DNA of 44,570 bases from a virus (lineage: Duplodnaviria; Heunggongvirae; Uroviricota; Caudoviricetes). The notes under the pieces are model-generated. The model made no database searches. It was not told where the DNA came from and worked only from the letters and a program-made list of their open reading frames with translations. A program made the translations under genes and the position numbers. Every line of letters starts with the position of its first letter. The first letter of the stretch is position 1. Of the stretch, positions 26,453 through 37,295 are shown in pieces. The stretch lies in the IMG/VR virus record IMGVR_UViG_2877973648_000004. The stretch is one strand, 5' to 3'.

Positions 26453-27060
26453 GCTGCCTCCCGCTGTTTTAGTGCGCGAAGATCTGCCCTGGCTTTGGCG
26501 CGGATGCCATCGAGCTCTTCTCGGGTGTATCGGTGGGTTTCGTTGTTGGATTCCAGCGCCAGCACGCGCTCTTCTCCGATCAGTTCGACCAGAGCGGCAC
26601 GGTACGCCTCAATGTTCCCGGACTTGTGAACGTTGCAGGCGGAGCACTGGAGCCAGATATTGTCCGGATTAAAGCGAAGCTGTGGTGCGGCTGCCGTAGT
26701 CCGATAATGGCCAGCATGCCAGGCGAACGCCGTTTTAGTTCCGCAGGAAATACAGCCCCGCCCCTCCGCCAACTCCGTCTCGCGGCAAATGTCATTTACG
26801 GCACGCTGCGTCAGGTCAATCCAGTGCTTCAGCGGCTTAACTGCAGCTTTACGCTGGCGCCAGGCTGCACGTTCTTTCTTCTCAGTGGCGCGCTGCTTGG
26901 CAGACTCTTTGCGTTGTGCAGCCTCCCGGGCTTTTCTGGTCTGCTCTTTCCCGACGGCGCTGGCGCACTCATAACCGCAGACGGTCTGCGTGTCGCGTAC
27001 TGGATTGAACCACTGGCGGCATTCCTTGTTGGCGCACTTCCGGCGCGGTAACTTAGCCAT
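26449..27060 (-). CDS. ninG: NinG-like protein (Rap family)
   Basis: MAKLPRRKCANKECRQWF... and CISCGT...WHAGHYRTTAAAPQLRFNPDNI...HKSGN closely resemble lambda NinG. Confidence 0.8.
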   Translation of the reverse strand: MAKLPRRKCANKECRQWFNPVRDTQTVCGYECASAVGKEQTRKAREAAQRKESAKQRATEKKERAAWRQRKAAVKPLKHWIDLTQRAVNDICRETELAEGRGCISCGTKTAFAWHAGHYRTTAAAPQLRFNPDNIWLQCSACNVHKSGNIEAYRAALVELIGEERVLALESNNETHRYTREELDGIRAKARADLRALKQREAA

Positions 27061-27062
27061 AA

Positions 27063-27272
27063 TCACCCCCAGACCTTTTGTCGAAAGGTTCTTGGTGTAC
27101 GCGCCGGATGCTCGCATTCAGGCAATTTTGCGCTGATAGTCCAGGTGATGTTGTCGCGATTCAGGCTACGTTCTACCGTGGCGCCACGACGACGGTAACT
27201 GGCCACCAGCTCGTCGGCCTGATCGGTTGTGCATTCGTGATGGTGGAACCAGGAATATTTCATCGCCATCAC
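27063..27272 (-). CDS. Hypothetical nin-region protein
   Basis: 69 aa ORF abutting ninG. Confidence 0.35.
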   Translation of the reverse strand: MMAMKYSWFHHHECTTDQADELVASYRRRGATVERSLNRDNITWTISAKLPECEHPARTPRTFRQKVWG

Positions 27273-27868
27273 CCCGCAAAGCTCATGAGCTGCGATGCGG
27301 CGTTTTCCGCTTCACGCTGGTCCTTGAATGCCCGGGACAATACCCAGCGCCACAGAACATCGAGCGCGGCTTTGTACAGCTGCTGGAACTCGGTTTCGTC
27401 CATGTTGGCAAAGGCAATGCTGCGGGGGTGTTTGCGAAGGGTGCCGTCGGGAAGCTGTATGGCGTCGTAGTGGCCAGACTCGATGATCACCCATGCACGA
27501 TATGCGTCATAGGATTTGCAGATGCTGATACTACCGGCGCGCTTATCGGCGATACGGTCCAGATACTGCTCGGCAGCATCCAGCAGTGCGCCTTCGTTTC
27601 CACCAAATGCCGCGAGGAATTTAGCGTACCCGGTCACCAATTTACGTTCATTGGAAGAAATCGCCCCACCGGTGGGTTCCCAGTATTCAAACCCGAGATT
27701 CAGGAGCGCAAAGAAACGGCGATGGAATGCTGGATTCCTCACCTGACGAAATTCGGCTACCAATACGGCACCAAGTTTGATTTTTGATTGCAGAATATCG
27801 CTGGTCTCCGGCGTAGCGGGGATCAGAATTCCTGAGGACTGCTTAATGAGTTGTAGTTCGTGCGCCAT
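27269..27868 (-). CDS. Hypothetical nin-region protein
   Basis: 199 aa ORF in an operon-like array; no recognised motif. Confidence 0.45.
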   Translation of the reverse strand: MAHELQLIKQSSGILIPATPETSDILQSKIKLGAVLVAEFRQVRNPAFHRRFFALLNLGFEYWEPTGGAISSNERKLVTGYAKFLAAFGGNEGALLDAAEQYLDRIADKRAGSISICKSYDAYRAWVIIESGHYDAIQLPDGTLRKHPRSIAFANMDETEFQQLYKAALDVLWRWVLSRAFKDQREAENAASQLMSFAG

Positions 27869-27902
27869 GGTTTCTCTCCGTGGCGCAGTAGGTTACGGTT
27901 GT

Positions 27903-28151
27903 TCAGACCGTTGATTTCATATTATCAGAAGGTGGTGTTACCCGGTAGCCGAGACGGCGGATAAATTGCATAAAACCATTAGGAGTAAAGACCTCTTCAT
28001 CATCCAGCAAAGGCCGCATAGAAACCATGCCATTGACGCGATAAATTAGATGCCTGCCCGATGAAGGAAAGCTAAACACCACGCAGCCGTCAGACCTTCT
28101 TACAATGTCATACCAGTTGTCTTCTGACGTTTGCAAAGCTGAATCACTCAC
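27903..28151 (-). CDS. Small protein downstream of DinI-like gene (candidate antirepressor, speculative)
   Basis: 82 aa, GTG start with GGGAGA RBS; second gene of the LexA-box operon. Confidence 0.35.
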   Translation of the reverse strand: MSDSALQTSEDNWYDIVRRSDGCVVFSFPSSGRHLIYRVNGMVSMRPLLDDEEVFTPNGFMQFIRRLGYRVTPPSDNMKSTV

Positions 28152-28268
28152 ATTTATGTTCTCCCTTCGAGCGACTAACAGACGCGATTAAAGATTGTCG
28201 GCAGCAGCATCAGAGGGTTACGCAAATTGCGGTATTCTGAAAAATGCGCGCCAGCCTTAAGCGCAATT

Positions 28269-28502
28269 CTAATAAAACCAGTCGTCAGCGCTTTCCCAGG
28301 TATCCTGGAGGATTGATTCAATTTTCTTTTTATCGTCCTTGTCACCACCAAAAACACTTAACCCATCGGACCCAGCACGGCGGATTGTGAGCCTGCAATT
28401 GTCATAGTGATCATTCAGGCGCTTAAGCAGTTCTTTCTCCAGTGCTGGTACTGCGCCTTTAGGAAGTTCTTTCATGCGATCAATGGTTAATTCAACTTTC
28501 AT
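28269..28502 (-). CDS. dinI: DinI-like DNA-damage-inducible protein
   Basis: MKVELTI...ILQDTWESADDWFY closely matches E. coli DinI (C-terminal ETWESADDWF); GGAGG RBS. Confidence 0.8.
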   Translation of the reverse strand: MKVELTIDRMKELPKGAVPALEKELLKRLNDHYDNCRLTIRRAGSDGLSVFGGDKDDKKKIESILQDTWESADDWFY

Positions 28503-28520
28503 AATAGCCTCCATTGCATG

Positions 28521-28540
28521 TACTGTGTTTTTATACAGTA
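28521..28540. promoter_or_regulatory. LexA (SOS) box
   Basis: TACTGTGTTTTTATACAGTA matches CTGT-N8-ACAG with TA flanks, about 20 nt upstream of the dinI-like start. Confidence 0.7.
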
Positions 28541-28607
28541 TACCTATGCACGGAAATGATCAACGTTTTAAGAGCACAAATTGTTAATTTTCTGTCAGTA
28601 TTAAAAA

Positions 28608-28632
28608 AAGAAAACCCGCCGTAGCGGGTTGA
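28608..28632 (-). terminator. Rho-independent terminator
   Basis: Minus strand aacccgc-tacg-gcgggtt followed by T-rich tract. Confidence 0.45.
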
Positions 28633-28762
28633 ATTAGCAATGTTTTATTACGCCGCTATTTGTTTCTGCTGACAAAGCTCCGGCAAATTAGCACGCACCA
28701 GCGCCTCAGCGAGCGCTGGAGGCACAGCGTTACCACAGCGCGCTACCAGAAAGAAAAAACCC

Positions 28763-28790
28763 GCATATAGCGGGTTTATTACAAGCTTTG
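28763..28790 (-). terminator. Rho-independent terminator after the HTH/peptidase gene
   Basis: Minus strand aaacccgc-tatat-gcgggttt followed by ttttctttc, just 3' of the stop at 28793. Confidence 0.5.
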
Positions 28791-28792
28791 AG

Positions 28793-29896
28793 TCAAACCA
28801 GTTGAAGTAGATTTCTTGGATTTGACAGTGGGCGGTTTACCGAGAATAACTCCCTAACCAACTCCTGGCTTAAACCAGTTTTCATGAGAATGCTCATCCA
28901 TGTTGCATCATCCAGCATTTCAATCGCCTCAGCTAACATACTCGGTTCTTCCGGGCGAATAAATTCATCTCCTGGTTCAACTTTCGTATATCCTTTAGAG
29001 TTCAAATGCATATAACCTGTTCTTGCCTGCTCCTGCGTCAGCAGGCCTAGAGTTGTTGCTCGGTAAATGCACATTTTAAGACTAATCTTCCACCGAAGCT
29101 TAAACTCAACTAGGGCGTTCCAATCGAACTGTCTTCCTCGTATACGGGGAAACTCTTTAATAAAGGACAATCGAGGAACTAGCAACGCGCTTGAAAAACG
29201 ATCCGCTTGCGATTCAGTCACTTTATCTCCTGTGGTTATACCTTCGTGCATAACCAAGTGCCCCAATTCGTGACCTAAATCTGATCGGAATCTGCATATA
29301 CTCTTTTTGACGTTATTTCGGATGATTACTGGCCTGTTGTTATGAACAGTAAAAGCATCTACGCGGTCATCCACTCCTGTCACATGAGCAACAATAACCC
29401 CCAAACTCTCAGCCAGTTTGACCATTGAGGATATAGGTCCCAGCCCTAAGTTCCATGCTCTTCTGCAGTCTTCCGCTACACGTTCAATATCATTTGGAGT
29501 CAGCAATTCAGCACCGGGGTGCTCAGGTATGAAAACATCAGGAAACTCGATTTCTCCCTCAACGGCAGAGATTATAATGTTAAGAATCTCCGCCCTTGCC
29601 AGAACACTATTGGTTAATGTTTGGGTTCTCGATTTTTTACTCCGAAAATGGCAAACATCGCTTTCTAAAGCATATTTTCGTTCAGTAAATAGGAAATCAG
29701 ATTTAATCATCAGCGCAGATGAGATTAATTCTAACAACTGTTCTGATGGTTTAAACCCTTTTTCCAATTTGCTAACGAATTGTTTTGTTTTACCAATTTT
29801 CTCCGCTAACTCTTCGCAGGAGAGCCCAACAGCCATTCTGGCTAATTTGAGCTTATCCCCACGATACTCAGCAAAGTCATTCACTTGATGTTCCAT
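28793..29896 (-). CDS. Fused HTH (XRE-type) / ImmA-IrrE-like zinc metallopeptidase
   Basis: N-terminal HTH-like LSCEELAEKIGKTKQFVSKLEKG; HEXXH-type motif HELGHLVMH in the C-terminal half; AT-rich. Confidence 0.6.
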   Translation of the reverse strand: MEHQVNDFAEYRGDKLKLARMAVGLSCEELAEKIGKTKQFVSKLEKGFKPSEQLLELISSALMIKSDFLFTERKYALESDVCHFRSKKSRTQTLTNSVLARAEILNIIISAVEGEIEFPDVFIPEHPGAELLTPNDIERVAEDCRRAWNLGLGPISSMVKLAESLGVIVAHVTGVDDRVDAFTVHNNRPVIIRNNVKKSICRFRSDLGHELGHLVMHEGITTGDKVTESQADRFSSALLVPRLSFIKEFPRIRGRQFDWNALVEFKLRWKISLKMCIYRATTLGLLTQEQARTGYMHLNSKGYTKVEPGDEFIRPEEPSMLAEAIEMLDDATWMSILMKTGLSQELVRELFSVNRPLSNPRNLLQLV

Positions 29897-30527
29897 TACT
29901 GCTCACATCCAAATCTTGATCTTTTTTACGGCGGCGAAGAGAGGCTTTGCCAATCTCAGCTTCATCCGGAAGAGTGTTGGTATCAAGAGACATAAGCGGC
30001 GCTGAAGCAGTAGATTGGTGTGAAACCATACTGATCTGGGCACCATATGCGTTAAACCCAACTAAAGCCACTTCCCAGCGAGGCAATGTTGATTCCAGCT
30101 CGCCATCTTCTTCATCGGATAAAAATGGTTCGGCGATGATCCGCCATGTAATATCTTGCTCGGCTTCAGTTTCACCGAACAATGAAAGTTGCTCATGCTC
30201 CACCCTATTTCGAAGAAGGCGATGCTTCTTCTTCGGGTTATTAATGCAATCTTTGGAGAACTGCAGCGGCACTTTATTTAACGCAACCACATAATCCAGT
30301 CCCTTCGAAACCATTTCCAGACCCGGCAGTGTCCCTTCACTTTGAATCAAATGATTTCTGACCCAATCATAAGCCCTTACACCTTCGGACCAGTTACTGT
30401 CCAGTGTGTGTTTGTGGTAGTACAATTGCTCGAGTACATTAGCAATTTCCGCTAACAACTGACGAACATTGCTTTCAGCAAGGTAAGGCTGAAATTCCCA
30501 ACAAGGTGCTAACTGGTTGTCGCTCAT
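29877..30527 (-). CDS. Hypothetical protein, upstream partner of the HTH/peptidase gene
   Basis: 216 aa, overlaps the downstream gene by about 20 nt (operon); no recognised motif. Confidence 0.45.
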   Translation of the reverse strand: MSDNQLAPCWEFQPYLAESNVRQLLAEIANVLEQLYYHKHTLDSNWSEGVRAYDWVRNHLIQSEGTLPGLEMVSKGLDYVVALNKVPLQFSKDCINNPKKKHRLLRNRVEHEQLSLFGETEAEQDITWRIIAEPFLSDEEDGELESTLPRWEVALVGFNAYGAQISMVSHQSTASAPLMSLDTNTLPDEAEIGKASLRRRKKDQDLDVSSNGTSSE

Positions 30528-34575: not shown

Positions 34576-35133
34576 TCATAGCGCACCACCCAGCATCGTT
34601 GTAACCATCGCCATAATGGGCGCCACAGAATCAGGTCCGTCCAGGTAGAGCTTGGCTACGATGCTCTCGCTGATTTCCTTCATCCGTTCGTGTCTGGGGG
34701 CTTTGAGGACGACAGCCTGTATCGCCTCAGCGTCTTCTTTCACCGACCTGGCGACACGAACCGCAAAGCAGTCGTGCTTAATCACGCGATCCCGGTACGC
34801 CAGCGGCAGAACCGAAATTATTACCGGCGCCAGCTGCTCGACGTTCGCCCGGTAGGCCGGTGATTTCTCGTGGTTGTCCAGCCAGCGAAACAGCTTCACG
34901 TTCCACACATCGGCGCTGCCGGTCATGTCAATGCTGTCAAGCTCGGCCTGTTCGGCAGCCTCTTTAATCGCCAGAGCGACCGCCACGCGGCCCTCTGCCG
35001 CCGCCCAGGCGCGGACGGCAGAACAGATAGCCCGGTGATCGACCGGCTGGCCTTCAGCCTCACTGTGTTGATACTGGAATTTCAGGTGCTCTGATGGCGC
35101 TCTGTTATTCTGTTGAAAAGAAAGTGTTTGCAT
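34576..35133 (-). CDS. Hypothetical early regulatory protein at the cII position
   Basis: 185 aa with AGGAG RBS, directly downstream of the Cro-like gene; no recognised motif. Confidence 0.4.
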   Translation of the reverse strand: MQTLSFQQNNRAPSEHLKFQYQHSEAEGQPVDHRAICSAVRAWAAAEGRVAVALAIKEAAEQAELDSIDMTGSADVWNVKLFRWLDNHEKSPAYRANVEQLAPVIISVLPLAYRDRVIKHDCFAVRVARSVKEDAEAIQAVVLKAPRHERMKEISESIVAKLYLDGPDSVAPIMAMVTTMLGGAL

Positions 35134-35144
35134 TGTCAGTGCTC

Positions 35145-35363
35145 CTACTTTGGTAATCCGTCAGTGGGATTTGGATAGAGATCAGGGCGCAGCTCGTGGG
35201 GGGTTACGCCTGTCATTTTGAAAATCGGGAAGATATAGCTTGGCGGGACGATCCCTTGGTCACGATTCTTCCAATGACTTACAGACATACTCGTCACACC
35301 AAGCGCGATGCTGAGCTTTCTGGCAGAGCCAGCGGCTTTAATTGCTTTATCGAGTGCGGACAT
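35145..35363 (-). CDS. Cro-like HTH regulator
   Basis: 72 aa, AGGAGAA RBS, HTH-like ARKLSIALGVTSMSVSHW, divergent from the repressor gene. Confidence 0.6.
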   Translation of the reverse strand: MSALDKAIKAAGSARKLSIALGVTSMSVSHWKNRDQGIVPPSYIFPIFKMTGVTPHELRPDLYPNPTDGLPK

Positions 35364-35465
35364 GTGCTTCTCCTGCTTATTGATAGCAGAAGTAAACCAC
35401 AGATTTATACTTTATGCAAACTTTGGATTTATTGCGTGCATAAACCAAATATTTACAATGACCAT
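35364..35465. promoter_or_regulatory. Immunity switch intergenic region (divergent promoters and operator-like inverted repeats)
   Basis: TTTATGCA...TGCATAAA inverted repeats; TTGCGT-16-TACAAT promoter-like element ending about 7 nt before the repressor ATG. Confidence 0.5.
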
Positions 35466-35849: not shown

Positions 35850-35990
35850 ATCGCTTTAGGTTTGTCCTGAATTTTTAGTTCCCATGAGACAATGATGTCT
35901 TTACTGGGGGGTGATTCCGCCATTTATGTTAGATTGAAAAAAACTATCAATTTAATTAATATTTATCACTACTACACGGGATGTTTTGCA

Positions 35991-37295
35991 ATGACAGCTG
36001 AGATTGTTGTAATAAATAATACTGGAATCGCCCTTGCTGCTGACTCTGCAGTCACCACAGAGCATAATAGATTAGTAAAAATAAATAATAGTGCGGAAAA
36101 ACTATTCGAACTATCTAAACACCATCCCGTGGGGATCATGATTTATAATAATGCGACACTGGGTGGCGCACCGTGGGAACTTATAATTAAATCCTATAGA
36201 AAACAATTGGGGAAAACTAGTTTCCCTACCATTAAAGAATATGTTAATGACTTTGTAAAATTCATCAATGGTAACTCAGACCTTATAACAAATGAAATGA
36301 GAGAGGCTTGCGTTATAAACCTTGTTGTTGATAACCTCAAAGGTTTGATGAGATACATTAATGATAATAATGTAGTAAACTATTTAACAATGAACCCCGC
36401 CGTTGAACTCGACAATGTTATTTTTCAAAACATAGTTAAGCAAGCCTTTGATTTAGAGATAGGAATCTTAAGGAATAATCTCTTTTTCGAAGGGTTTGAT
36501 ACAGAAGAGTTTAATGATGCTTTAGCATATATACAAGATTTAATATCGCCATACATTTCATCAATTATTGTTCTTGATAACTGTGAAAATATACAGCAAG
36601 AGCTTATGGAAAAAGTCATATTATATTCCACTTGTTTAATTTTCAAAGTCCATGCTAGTCGTACATATTCAGGGATTGTTATAACAGGTTATGGAGAGGA
36701 AGAATATTACCCTTCCATTTGCACTCTTCATATCTACGGCATTTTTAAAAACAAATTGATGATCCATAATATTGATGAGAAATCCCATAATGAGGTAACC
36801 AATATGGGGTTTGTTATACCATTTGCTCAAGAAGATGAAGTAGTAACTTTCATTGATGGGTGCAACCCTAACATCATTAATTTTAACAGAACTCTTACAG
36901 AGGAAGTTTTTGATCGGCTTAATCATTATGTTTCTAGCAATATTTTCCCTGCAATGAACAATGGAGTACTAGCCAATCACTTCTCCAGTGAAATTGAGGA
37001 ACTCAAAAACGTACTTTTACAAGATCACGATACTAAACTTGAAAGCTATATTGTTAATAACCATACAAATAAAATGATATCGATGTTGCAATCACTTGGG
37101 AAGGCAGATCTTGCGTATATGGCCGAATCATTAGTGAACATCACTGCATTCAAAAGAAAAGTATCACATGATTATGAAACTGTCGGTGGGCCTGTTGATG
37201 TCGCTGTGATATCAAAAGTTGATGGATTTGTTTGGGTAAATCGTAAACACTACTTCCCTAAAGAGCTAAACTCTAACTACTTTAATCGTCAATAA
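35991..37295 (+). CDS. Large AT-rich protein with N-terminal proteasome-beta/HslV-like Ntn-hydrolase domain
   Basis: Track ORF 35892-37295; from internal Met the sequence is M-TAEIVVINNTGIALAADSAVT...EKLFEL...VGIMIYNNATLGG, matching proteasome-beta Thr1/Gly11/Asp17/Lys~33 spacing; very low GC. Confidence 0.5.
   Translation: MTAEIVVINNTGIALAADSAVTTEHNRLVKINNSAEKLFELSKHHPVGIMIYNNATLGGAPWELIIKSYRKQLGKTSFPTIKEYVNDFVKFINGNSDLITNEMREACVINLVVDNLKGLMRYINDNNVVNYLTMNPAVELDNVIFQNIVKQAFDLEIGILRNNLFFEGFDTEEFNDALAYIQDLISPYISSIIVLDNCENIQQELMEKVILYSTCLIFKVHASRTYSGIVITGYGEEEYYPSICTLHIYGIFKNKLMIHNIDEKSHNEVTNMGFVIPFAQEDEVVTFIDGCNPNIINFNRTLTEEVFDRLNHYVSSNIFPAMNNGVLANHFSSEIEELKNVLLQDHDTKLESYIVNNHTNKMISMLQSLGKADLAYMAESLVNITAFKRKVSHDYETVGGPVDVAVISKVDGFVWVNRKHYFPKELNSNYFNRQ

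Follow-up and report, generated by a model that had tools for sequence, protein, structure and literature searches.

A probable Gifsy-type, LexA-controlled antirepressor switch in an mEp237-like lambdoid prophage of Escherichia coli

The short repressors of the Salmonella Gifsy prophages are not cleaved when these prophages are induced (Lemire, Figueroa-Bossi & Bossi, PLoS Genet 2011; PMC3121763). In each case a LexA box preceded by a terminator adjoins a dinI homologue downstream of the replication genes, and the operon that follows has the order dinI, antirepressor, irsA (PMC3121763). The minimal segment needed for induction, found between dinI and irsA, codes for a small protein that starts at a non-canonical codon. 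The product (GftA, GfoA or GfhA) binds to the repressor and dislodges it from DNA, and GfoA and GfhA each inactivate both GfoR and GfhR, whereas a non-polar deletion of irsA is without effect on induction (PMC3121763). The dinI boxes of Salmonella Gifsy-1 and Gifsy-2 lie 19 bp from the ATG, have heterology indices of 4.55 and 3.92, and gave 23- and 14-fold induction with nalidixic acid, respectively (PMC8072944). A gfoA::mCherry reporter is responsive to ciprofloxacin (PMC12626290).

Two further systems have parts in common with the Gifsy switch. The cryptic prophage Qin of E. coli K-12 encodes Rem, an 83-aa antirepressor found by PSI-BLAST from GfoA, which relieves repression by the short, non-cleavable helix-turn-helix (HTH) repressor DicA; the condition that induces Rem is stated as not known (PMC10448788). 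Coliphage 186 encodes Tum, a LexA-controlled antirepressor that binds its repressor and blocks operator binding.

We compared these systems with a locus in the window, by which we mean the whole 44.6-kb stretch of DNA that was analysed. By its sequence the entire window is a chromosomal prophage of E. coli, and E. coli strain ET881 matches it at 99.4% over 11 kb. Positions 27800-28700 share 99.2% identity with coliphage mEp237 and about 86% with Salmonella phage SEN34; the similarity of Gifsy-1 and Gifsy-2 within the same segment comprises the end of dinI, the spacer behind it and the start of the DUF1367 gene. On the minus strand the operon is ordered as LexA box, dinI, an 82-aa open reading frame with a GTG start and irsA/DUF1367, with a terminator preceding the box (Table 1), and the anatomical points of the published Gifsy module (PMC3121763) were each found in the window. 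An earlier note on this DNA had described a near-consensus LexA box ahead of a dinI-like gene and an 82-aa gene, some 7 kb from a short repressor. All of these elements are located where it had placed them, and the distance between box and repressor was measured as about 6.9 kb. We conclude that the locus is very probably a Gifsy-type induction switch of an E. coli lambdoid prophage that is mEp237-like in this region. It represents an already described system, a GfoA/GfoR orthologue in an E. coli prophage, of a switch known since 2011 for Salmonella Gifsy. The anatomy of the locus, its orthology with GfoA/GfoR, the lack of an S24 domain, and how far the parts are conserved and occur together were obtained directly, as described below.

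Table 1 Features of the operon and of the repressor region, in coordinates of the window
Feature	Position	Strand	Evidence or remark
DUF1367/irsA homologue, 199 aa, operon gene 3	27269-27868	-	Pfam DUF1367 E 2.5e-91
GfoA-type antirepressor gene, 82 aa, GTG start	27903-28151	-	phrog_340; between dinI and irsA
dinI-antirepressor spacer, 117 nt	28152..28268	-	weak terminator-like hairpin 28247-28265; antirepressor GGGAG Shine-Dalgarno
dinI homologue, 77 aa, operon gene 1	28269-28502	-	Pfam DinI E 8e-26; phrog_189; PGAP 'DinI family protein'
LexA (SOS) box TACTGTGTTTTTATACAGTA	28521-28540	.	18 nt upstream of dinI ATG
Putative sigma-70 promoter	28535..28563	-	-10 overlaps LexA box; inferred by analogy with Gifsy
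Rho-independent terminator AACCCGCTACGGCGGGTT + T-run	28603..28630	-	terminator scan; hairpin 28630-28613
YdaT/CII-position gene	34576-35133	-	Pfam YdaT_toxin 1.5e-17; PGAP name
YdaS/Cro-like gene	35145-35363	-	Pfam YdaS_toxin 1.4e-13; PGAP name
Divergent control region	35364..35465	.	between cro-like and repressor genes; repeat search
GfoR-type repressor, 127 aa	35466-35849	+	N-terminal HTH (HTH_3) + C-terminal helical part; without peptidase domain

The box, TACTGTGTTTTTATACAGTA, matches the LexA consensus TACTGTATATATATACAGTA at 17 of 20 positions. Its half-sites, TACTGT and ACAGTA with eight nucleotides between them, are perfect, and the three mismatches all fall within the AT-rich centre. 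It is the sole site within three mismatches of the consensus in the 44.6-kb window, and no such site occurred in any of 100 shuffled versions of the window that preserve dinucleotide content. The window contains 24 CTG-N10-CAG sites, among which the runner-up to the box has five mismatches and is intragenic. An equivalent box is located 15-20 nt before the dinI ATG in nine related phage loci.

Based on conservation and on analogy with Gifsy, we assigned a putative promoter that overlaps the box. Its -35 hexamer would be TTGATC (28563-28558) and its -10 hexamer either TATACT (28542-28537, with a 15-nt spacer) or TACTGT (28540-28535, with a 17-nt spacer). These hexamers are weak, and a scan of the box region with the sigma-70 consensus retrieved no strong promoter. 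In an alignment of the upstream regions, the TTG of the -35 hexamer and TATACTGT are invariant across 10 phage loci. The terminator scan identified two intrinsic terminators on the operon strand, shortly before the box. Terminators precede all Gifsy LexA boxes (PMC3121763), and a terminator hairpin is kept upstream of the box in mEp237, Gifsy-2, SEN34, Chris1, SPN3UB and the Klebsiella phages. The terminator listed in Table 1 is predicted to shield the LexA-controlled promoter from upstream transcription.

The earlier note implied that dinI starts at ATG 28514. We consider ATG 28502 the likelier start because it is preceded by a Shine-Dalgarno sequence (GGAGG-N5) and because the same start is used in the mEp237, Gifsy and PGAP annotations. 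The spacer between dinI and the 82-aa open reading frame is about 90% conserved with Gifsy-2 at the DNA level, although the antirepressor genes downstream of it differ. RNA folding of the spacer gave no significant overall structure (z 0.09), so as a whole it is not a structured RNA element, and an Rfam search of positions 27000-29000 retrieved nothing near threshold. At the other end, 34 nt separate the 82-aa open reading frame from the DUF1367 gene, which is homologous to Gifsy-2 STM1020, at the position called irsA (PMC3121763).

The 82-aa protein has no match in Pfam. To compare it with GfoA, and the repressor with GfoR, we deduced the ends of the Gifsy-1 proteins by translating the primers given in PMC3121763 (le175 and le163 for GfoA), so that the comparison covers 8 + 13 terminal residues of the antirepressor and 13 of the repressor. 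At the N-terminus, GfoA reads MSNSALQK and the window protein MSDSALQT, with six of eight residues identical. The C-terminal segments, RRLGYRVTPPSDI in GfoA and RRLGYRVTPPSDNMKSTV in the window, are identical at 12 of 13 residues, and the 40-nt primer used to tag gfoA matches the window DNA at 36 nt. GfoA ends in ...PPSDI, and the window protein carries a 9-residue C-terminal tail that is absent from GfoA; with one base fewer after GAT, the window would read GAT ATA TGA and end like the shorter GfoA. The window protein has 91% identity to Salmonella proteins beginning MSNSALQK. By position and by sequence, the 82-aa open reading frame is thus the orthologue of GfoA, a proven antirepressor.

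An AlphaFold model of the 82-aa protein consists of five strands and a C-terminal helix with moderate confidence (pLDDT 68.5). The model yields no structural clue to the mode of binding, because Foldseek found no match to it in the PDB below E 0.6; a PDB sequence search with the protein retrieved chance matches only.

The earlier note had argued that the repressor is too short to carry an autocleavage domain, and this was borne out. PGAP places its start at GTG 35436, 10 codons before the start used in Table 1, which gives 137 aa; at either 127 or 137 aa the protein is therefore too short for an S24 domain. HTH_3 is its only Pfam domain, and the best 120 of 945 homologues of the repressor likewise all have HTH_3 only. 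The C-terminus, EKYMKGRIRSQGD, is identical to that of GfoR, EKYMKGRIRTRED, at 10 of 13 residues, whereas the N-termini differ (MRKEEPN in the window, MKEKTHQ in GfoR). The closest Salmonella repressors are 92-93% identical to the window repressor and end in ...RIRTHRE, compared with ...RIRTRED in GfoR. The alignment between DicA and the window repressor runs from end to end, at 28% identity (E 3e-12). A PDB sequence search with the repressor gave spurious matches to polyubiquitin. By these sequence relationships the repressor belongs to the short GfoR/GfhR/DicA group. Within the divergent control region, TAAACCACAGATTTA (35393-35407) and TAAACCAAATATTTA (35441-35455) are candidate operators for it, and the repressor would keep the early rightward genes at 34576..35363 silent.

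Directly after the repressor gene lies an AT-rich gene for a 434-aa protein, the model of which has a proteasome-beta/Anbu fold (pLDDT 85.5). Its Met-Thr N-terminus is invariant, and its relatives sit in accessory-gene slots of other prophages.

The earlier note had proposed an SOS-induced antirepressor mechanism with the 82-aa product as the candidate antirepressor. The published Gifsy mechanism, the positional and sequence orthology with GfoA and the presence of a repressor of the GfoR/GfhR/DicA group all support this proposal. The mechanism is presumed to be the same as that of GfoA/GfoR; control by LexA, binding to the repressor and its release from DNA are carried over by analogy from work on the orthologues in Salmonella. 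In a lysogen, host LexA bound to the box that overlaps the -10 hexamer would keep the dinI/gfoA-like/irsA operon silent, the upstream terminator would stop read-through into the operon, and the 127-aa HTH repressor, encoded about 7 kb away, would keep the early promoters shut. Upon DNA damage RecA would become active, LexA would cleave itself and the operon would be transcribed. The 82-aa protein would then build up, at a level probably held low by its non-AUG start and perhaps by the weak hairpin after dinI. It would bind the repressor, in an A2B2 complex in the Gifsy case, and strip it from the operators, and the early operons on the cro side and on the recE side would thereby be switched on. 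Inactivation by binding would therefore be reversible in principle.

The locus most resembles GfoA/GfoR of Gifsy-1 and GfhA/GfhR of Gifsy-3 in S. Typhimurium ATCC14028, which have the same operon layout outside the immunity region. The termini of the antirepressor are nearly identical to those of GfoA, and the repressor is likewise a short HTH protein with the same C-terminal sequence. The window differs from GfoA/GfoR in its E. coli host, its mEp237-like backbone and the 9-residue tail of the antirepressor, and, unlike the GfoA/GfoR loci, it has a RosmerTA cassette inserted just upstream. The start codon of the antirepressor gene is GTG in the window and TTG in Salmonella phage SEN34. The N-terminus and HTH of the window repressor are unlike those of GfoR, which implies a different immunity specificity.

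Gifsy-2 encodes GftA and GftR (= GtgR) at the same position and in the same LexA-dinI-antirepressor-irsA operon as the window. GftA is similar in size to the window protein (73 aa) and also has a GUG start. The two proteins belong to different PHROG families (340 for the window protein, 4847 for GftA), and BLASTP of GftA, taken from the Gifsy-2 record, against the 82-aa protein gave no real match; the link to Gifsy is drawn from synteny and from the primer-derived termini of GfoA. Comparison of GftA with the window family by hhalign gave a marginal similarity (P 7e-4, probability 26%) with 50 columns in register. GtgR itself is only about 33% similar to GfoR (PMC3121763).

Other antirepressor systems are more distant. 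Rem and DicA resemble the window pair in the size of the antirepressor and in the short, non-cleavable HTH repressor, but rem of K-12 is not preceded by dinI, and hhalign detected no similarity between Rem and the GfoA-family profile (E 0.15 over 20 columns). As in the window, Tum of coliphage 186 and the split tum/dinI of PSP3 and Fels-2 link a LexA-controlled antirepressor to a DinI module. The order differs: 186 has a single fusion of antirepressor and DinI (146 aa), PSP3 has the antirepressor ahead of dinI, and the window has dinI ahead of the antirepressor. Phages 186, PSP3 and Fels-2 are P2-like, with repressors unrelated to that of the window, and a tblastn search of 50,697 phage records with the 82-aa protein matched no P2/186-type phage. 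The lambda CI, P22 C2 and LexA type likewise has a lysogeny switch triggered by SOS, and the N-terminal HTH of the window repressor is related to that of CI; unlike these proteins, the window repressor has no S24 peptidase domain.

The same collection of 50,697 phage records was used to evaluate the co-occurrence of antirepressor and repressor. By tblastn, a homologue of the 82-aa protein was found in 17 records and a homologue of the repressor in 39, and 15 of the 17 have both. The homologue follows directly after dinI in eight of the nine other phage loci examined (SEN34, Klebsiella ST974-OXA48phi18.2 and ST846-OXA48phi9.1, PHB10, Citrobacter Chris1, SPN3UB, Kp4865-4 and Aeromonas pAEv1818); the only examined locus without this arrangement is a weak match in Elizabethkingia. 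A box of the TACTGT-N8-ACAGT type was found 15-20 nt before the dinI ATG in all seven of the eight loci for which upstream sequence is available, the record of ST846-OXA48phi9.1 being left out of this count as it begins at dinI. The box of pAEv1818 has the variant ACCAGT. The antirepressor of mEp237 is 98.8% identical to the window protein and is paired with a GfhR-like repressor, gp39, in which the two start contexts and the C-terminus are those of GfhR. This pairing fits the published cross-reactivity of GfoA and GfhA.

Comparison of the window repressor with gp39 of mEp237 shows that the two parts of the protein are unequally conserved, with 56% identity over the N-terminal 69 residues and 84% over the C-terminal 58 residues. 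Across nine phages, the identity of the antirepressor to the window protein is correlated with the identity of the repressor C-terminal part (Spearman 0.77, p 0.016) and more weakly with that of the N-terminal part (0.50, p 0.17). There are two types of antirepressor and two types of repressor C-terminal part, and the one tracks the other in all nine phages. Klebsiella phage Kp4865-4 is a natural chimera in this respect: its N-terminal HTH half is window-like (72%), and its C-terminal part and its antirepressor are both of the Chris1/pAEv1818 type. We tentatively suggest, at somewhat less than even confidence, that the antirepressor recognizes the conserved C-terminal helical part of the repressor (residues about 70-127, ...LLELYRQLPEEEQQNMLRIFSIRLKELDELYEKYM...) and not the variable HTH. 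Given the small sample and the shared descent of the phages, we regard this as a lead and not as proof; we infer it as a small new point of analysis. If true, the C-terminal part would be an exchangeable 'induction-signal receiver', which would decide which prophages of a polylysogen fire together independently of immunity specificity, and the threshold would be governed by the conserved spacer between dinI and the antirepressor gene, with the weak terminator it contains.

The antirepressor and repressor of the window are probably a cognate pair, for which the support is indirect. The LexA-box operon might be merely an SOS accessory, consisting of a RecA-modulating DinI and two passengers, with an 82-aa protein that does not act on the prophage's own repressor. 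The prophage would then be induced by another route or in trans, as Gifsy-2 is by FsoA of Fels-1. Non-cognate pairs do exist, in that GtgR of Gifsy-2 is insensitive to GfoA (PMC3121763), and the N-terminal half of the window repressor shares only 56% identity with its counterpart in mEp237, a phage with the same antirepressor. Against this, the C-terminal part is the one that is 84% identical to mEp237, and 10 of its last 13 residues are shared with GfoR. The consistent pairing of antirepressor type with repressor C-terminal type in nine of nine phages and the near-complete co-occurrence in the phage collection (15 of 17) also argue for an antirepressor that acts on the repressor it accompanies, and GfoA is able to act across the heteroimmune GfoR and GfhR (PMC3121763). 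Thus, we consider it unlikely that the operon is an accessory alone.

Two further routes to induction are less probable still. One is cleavage of the repressor after damage by the product of the gene at 28793-29896, which combines an HTH with an M78 (ImmA/IrrE-like) metalloprotease domain, in the manner of ImmA acting on ImmR in ICEBs1 and some Bacillus phages. This gene is directly upstream of the LexA-box operon and its domains are recognized by Pfam (Peptidase_M78, E 1.3e-10, and HTH_3). However, PADLOC matches it to RmrA, the RosmerTA antitoxin, at E 1.6e-106, and matches the overlapping upstream gene to the toxin RmrT at 2.4e-26. It encodes the sole M78 protein of the window, is located about 5.6 kb from the repressor and not adjacent to it, and is separated from the LexA promoter by two terminators. 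The M78 cassette is moreover absent from mEp237, Gifsy-1/2 and SEN34, all of which retain the dinI-antirepressor module. We rejected the M78 gene as an ImmA-type repressor protease on the RosmerTA match, and give this route a very low probability. The other is the lambdoid default, in which RecA would stimulate the repressor, or another CI-like repressor overlooked in the prophage, to cleave itself. We found nothing in its favour. The repressor, of 127-137 aa, has an HTH only, and the Gifsy repressors of this group are uncleaved on induction (PMC3121763). A cryptic S24 domain in the repressor had been raised in the earlier note as evidence that would count against an antirepressor mechanism; it was searched for with Pfam and in six frames, and both searches were negative. 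The six-frame search covered 558 segments of the whole window, and neither phmmer, queried with LexA and with two S24 prophage repressors, nor a small S24 HMM built from these proteins gave a match at E<=10. A self-cleaving repressor was rejected on the basis of the HTH_3-only content and this search, and of the explanations considered we regard it as the most improbable.

As an observation in its own right, the RosmerTA defence/toxin-antitoxin cassette looks like inserted cargo, and a methyltransferase remnant lies beside it.

Although the finding leaves current understanding unchanged, it indicates, by orthology, that Gifsy-type induction, in which LexA controls a small antirepressor, is also at work in a group of E. 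coli prophages, which should be inducible by SOS even though they lack a cleavable repressor. Because the antirepressors are active across immunity groups, prophages that share a host cell and the same C-terminal type of repressor may be induced together. At an identity of at least 95%, the module occurs in 51 of 5,426 complete E. coli genomes, with a single copy in each. The antirepressor gene could receive a name: it is labelled 'hypothetical protein' in all ten genomes listed and in ET881.

A gene whose predicted product resembles proteasome subunits follows the prophage repressor on the same strand, its start lying 43 nt past the repressor's stop codon (see the table for coordinates). The gene is AT-rich, with a GC content of 31-39% vs ~50% in neighbouring DNA. 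No match was found in Pfam or PADLOC, and the product has >6,450 homologues, which are labelled 'hypothetical'. Residues M1-T2, D18, K30 and K37 are invariant. Based on an AlphaFold model (pLDDT 85.5), Foldseek retrieved proteasome beta subunits and Anbu (probability 1.0, E 3e-4), relative to which the modelled fold carries two long helical insertions. In Klebsiella prophages, relatives of the gene are located 3' of S24-type CI repressors, and in Enterobacter prophages they lie between Q and the holin; both slots are typical of cargo or defence genes. The gene may be a member of a 'PMI' cluster from Fuchs et al. 2021 (PMC8665760). It also contains the second-best LexA-like site of the window, in which the CTGT-N8-ACAG core is perfect and five positions mismatch the 20-mer consensus. 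This site may be a chance occurrence because the surrounding region is AT-rich.

Coordinates and attributes of features in the prophage window
Feature	Position	Strand	Details
Proteasome-like gene	35892-37295	+	likely true start 35991
Second-best LexA-like site	36579-36598		AACTGTGAAAATATACAGCA; within proteasome-like gene
Two 15-nt repeats	within 35393-35458		TAAACCACAGATTTA and TAAACCAAATATTTA; cro/repressor intergenic region
RosmerTA cassette	28793-30527	-	PADLOC
RmrT	29877-30527	-	216 aa; PADLOC 2.4e-26
RmrA	28793-29896	-	367 aa; HTH plus M78; 1.6e-106
dinI-antirepressor spacer	28152-28268	-	117 nt

The RosmerTA cassette, in which the rmrT and rmrA reading frames overlap, is an insertion with the early-gene region on one side and the LexA-box operon on the other. 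At the equivalent position coliphage mEp237 encodes a DNA methyltransferase instead, and a methyltransferase remnant is annotated by PGAP at ~28648-28746 of the window.

Within the LexA-box operon, the spacer that separates dinI from the antirepressor gene is ~90% conserved with those of the Salmonella prophage Gifsy-2, the Salmonella phage SEN34 and mEp237. In Gifsy-2 it precedes the gene for the antirepressor GftA, which looks unrelated to the antirepressor gene of the window. Phages with the other antirepressor type, that of Chris1, pAEv1818 and Kp4865-4, have a short spacer of ~45 nt. The spacer could be a leaky attenuator that fixes the DinI:antirepressor ratio, or else a recombination joint. 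Its 5' end carries a weak hairpin that resembles a terminator and has a T-run after it (28265-28247); the overall RNA fold of the 117 nt is not significant.

The repeats between cro and the repressor gene are 48 nt apart. A TACAAT hexamer ends 7 nt 5' of the repressor ATG (35466), which lacks a Shine-Dalgarno sequence. One might speculate that the repressor mRNA is leaderless, as is that of lambda cI from PRM, which the hexamer spacing and the missing Shine-Dalgarno would fit.

A tandem pair of paralogues of the type of GfoR and GfhR (repressors of Gifsy-1 and Gifsy-3) is present in mEp237 (11343-12222), where the C-terminal motif RLKELDELYAKYM occurs in both gp39 (155 aa) and gp38 (130 aa); SEN34 likewise has two HTH genes side by side. 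In Klebsiella phage Kp4865-4, the N-terminal HTH half of the repressor shares 72% identity with the window repressor, and both the C-terminal half and the partner antirepressor belong to the Chris1/pAEv1818 type. This repressor looks like a natural chimera.
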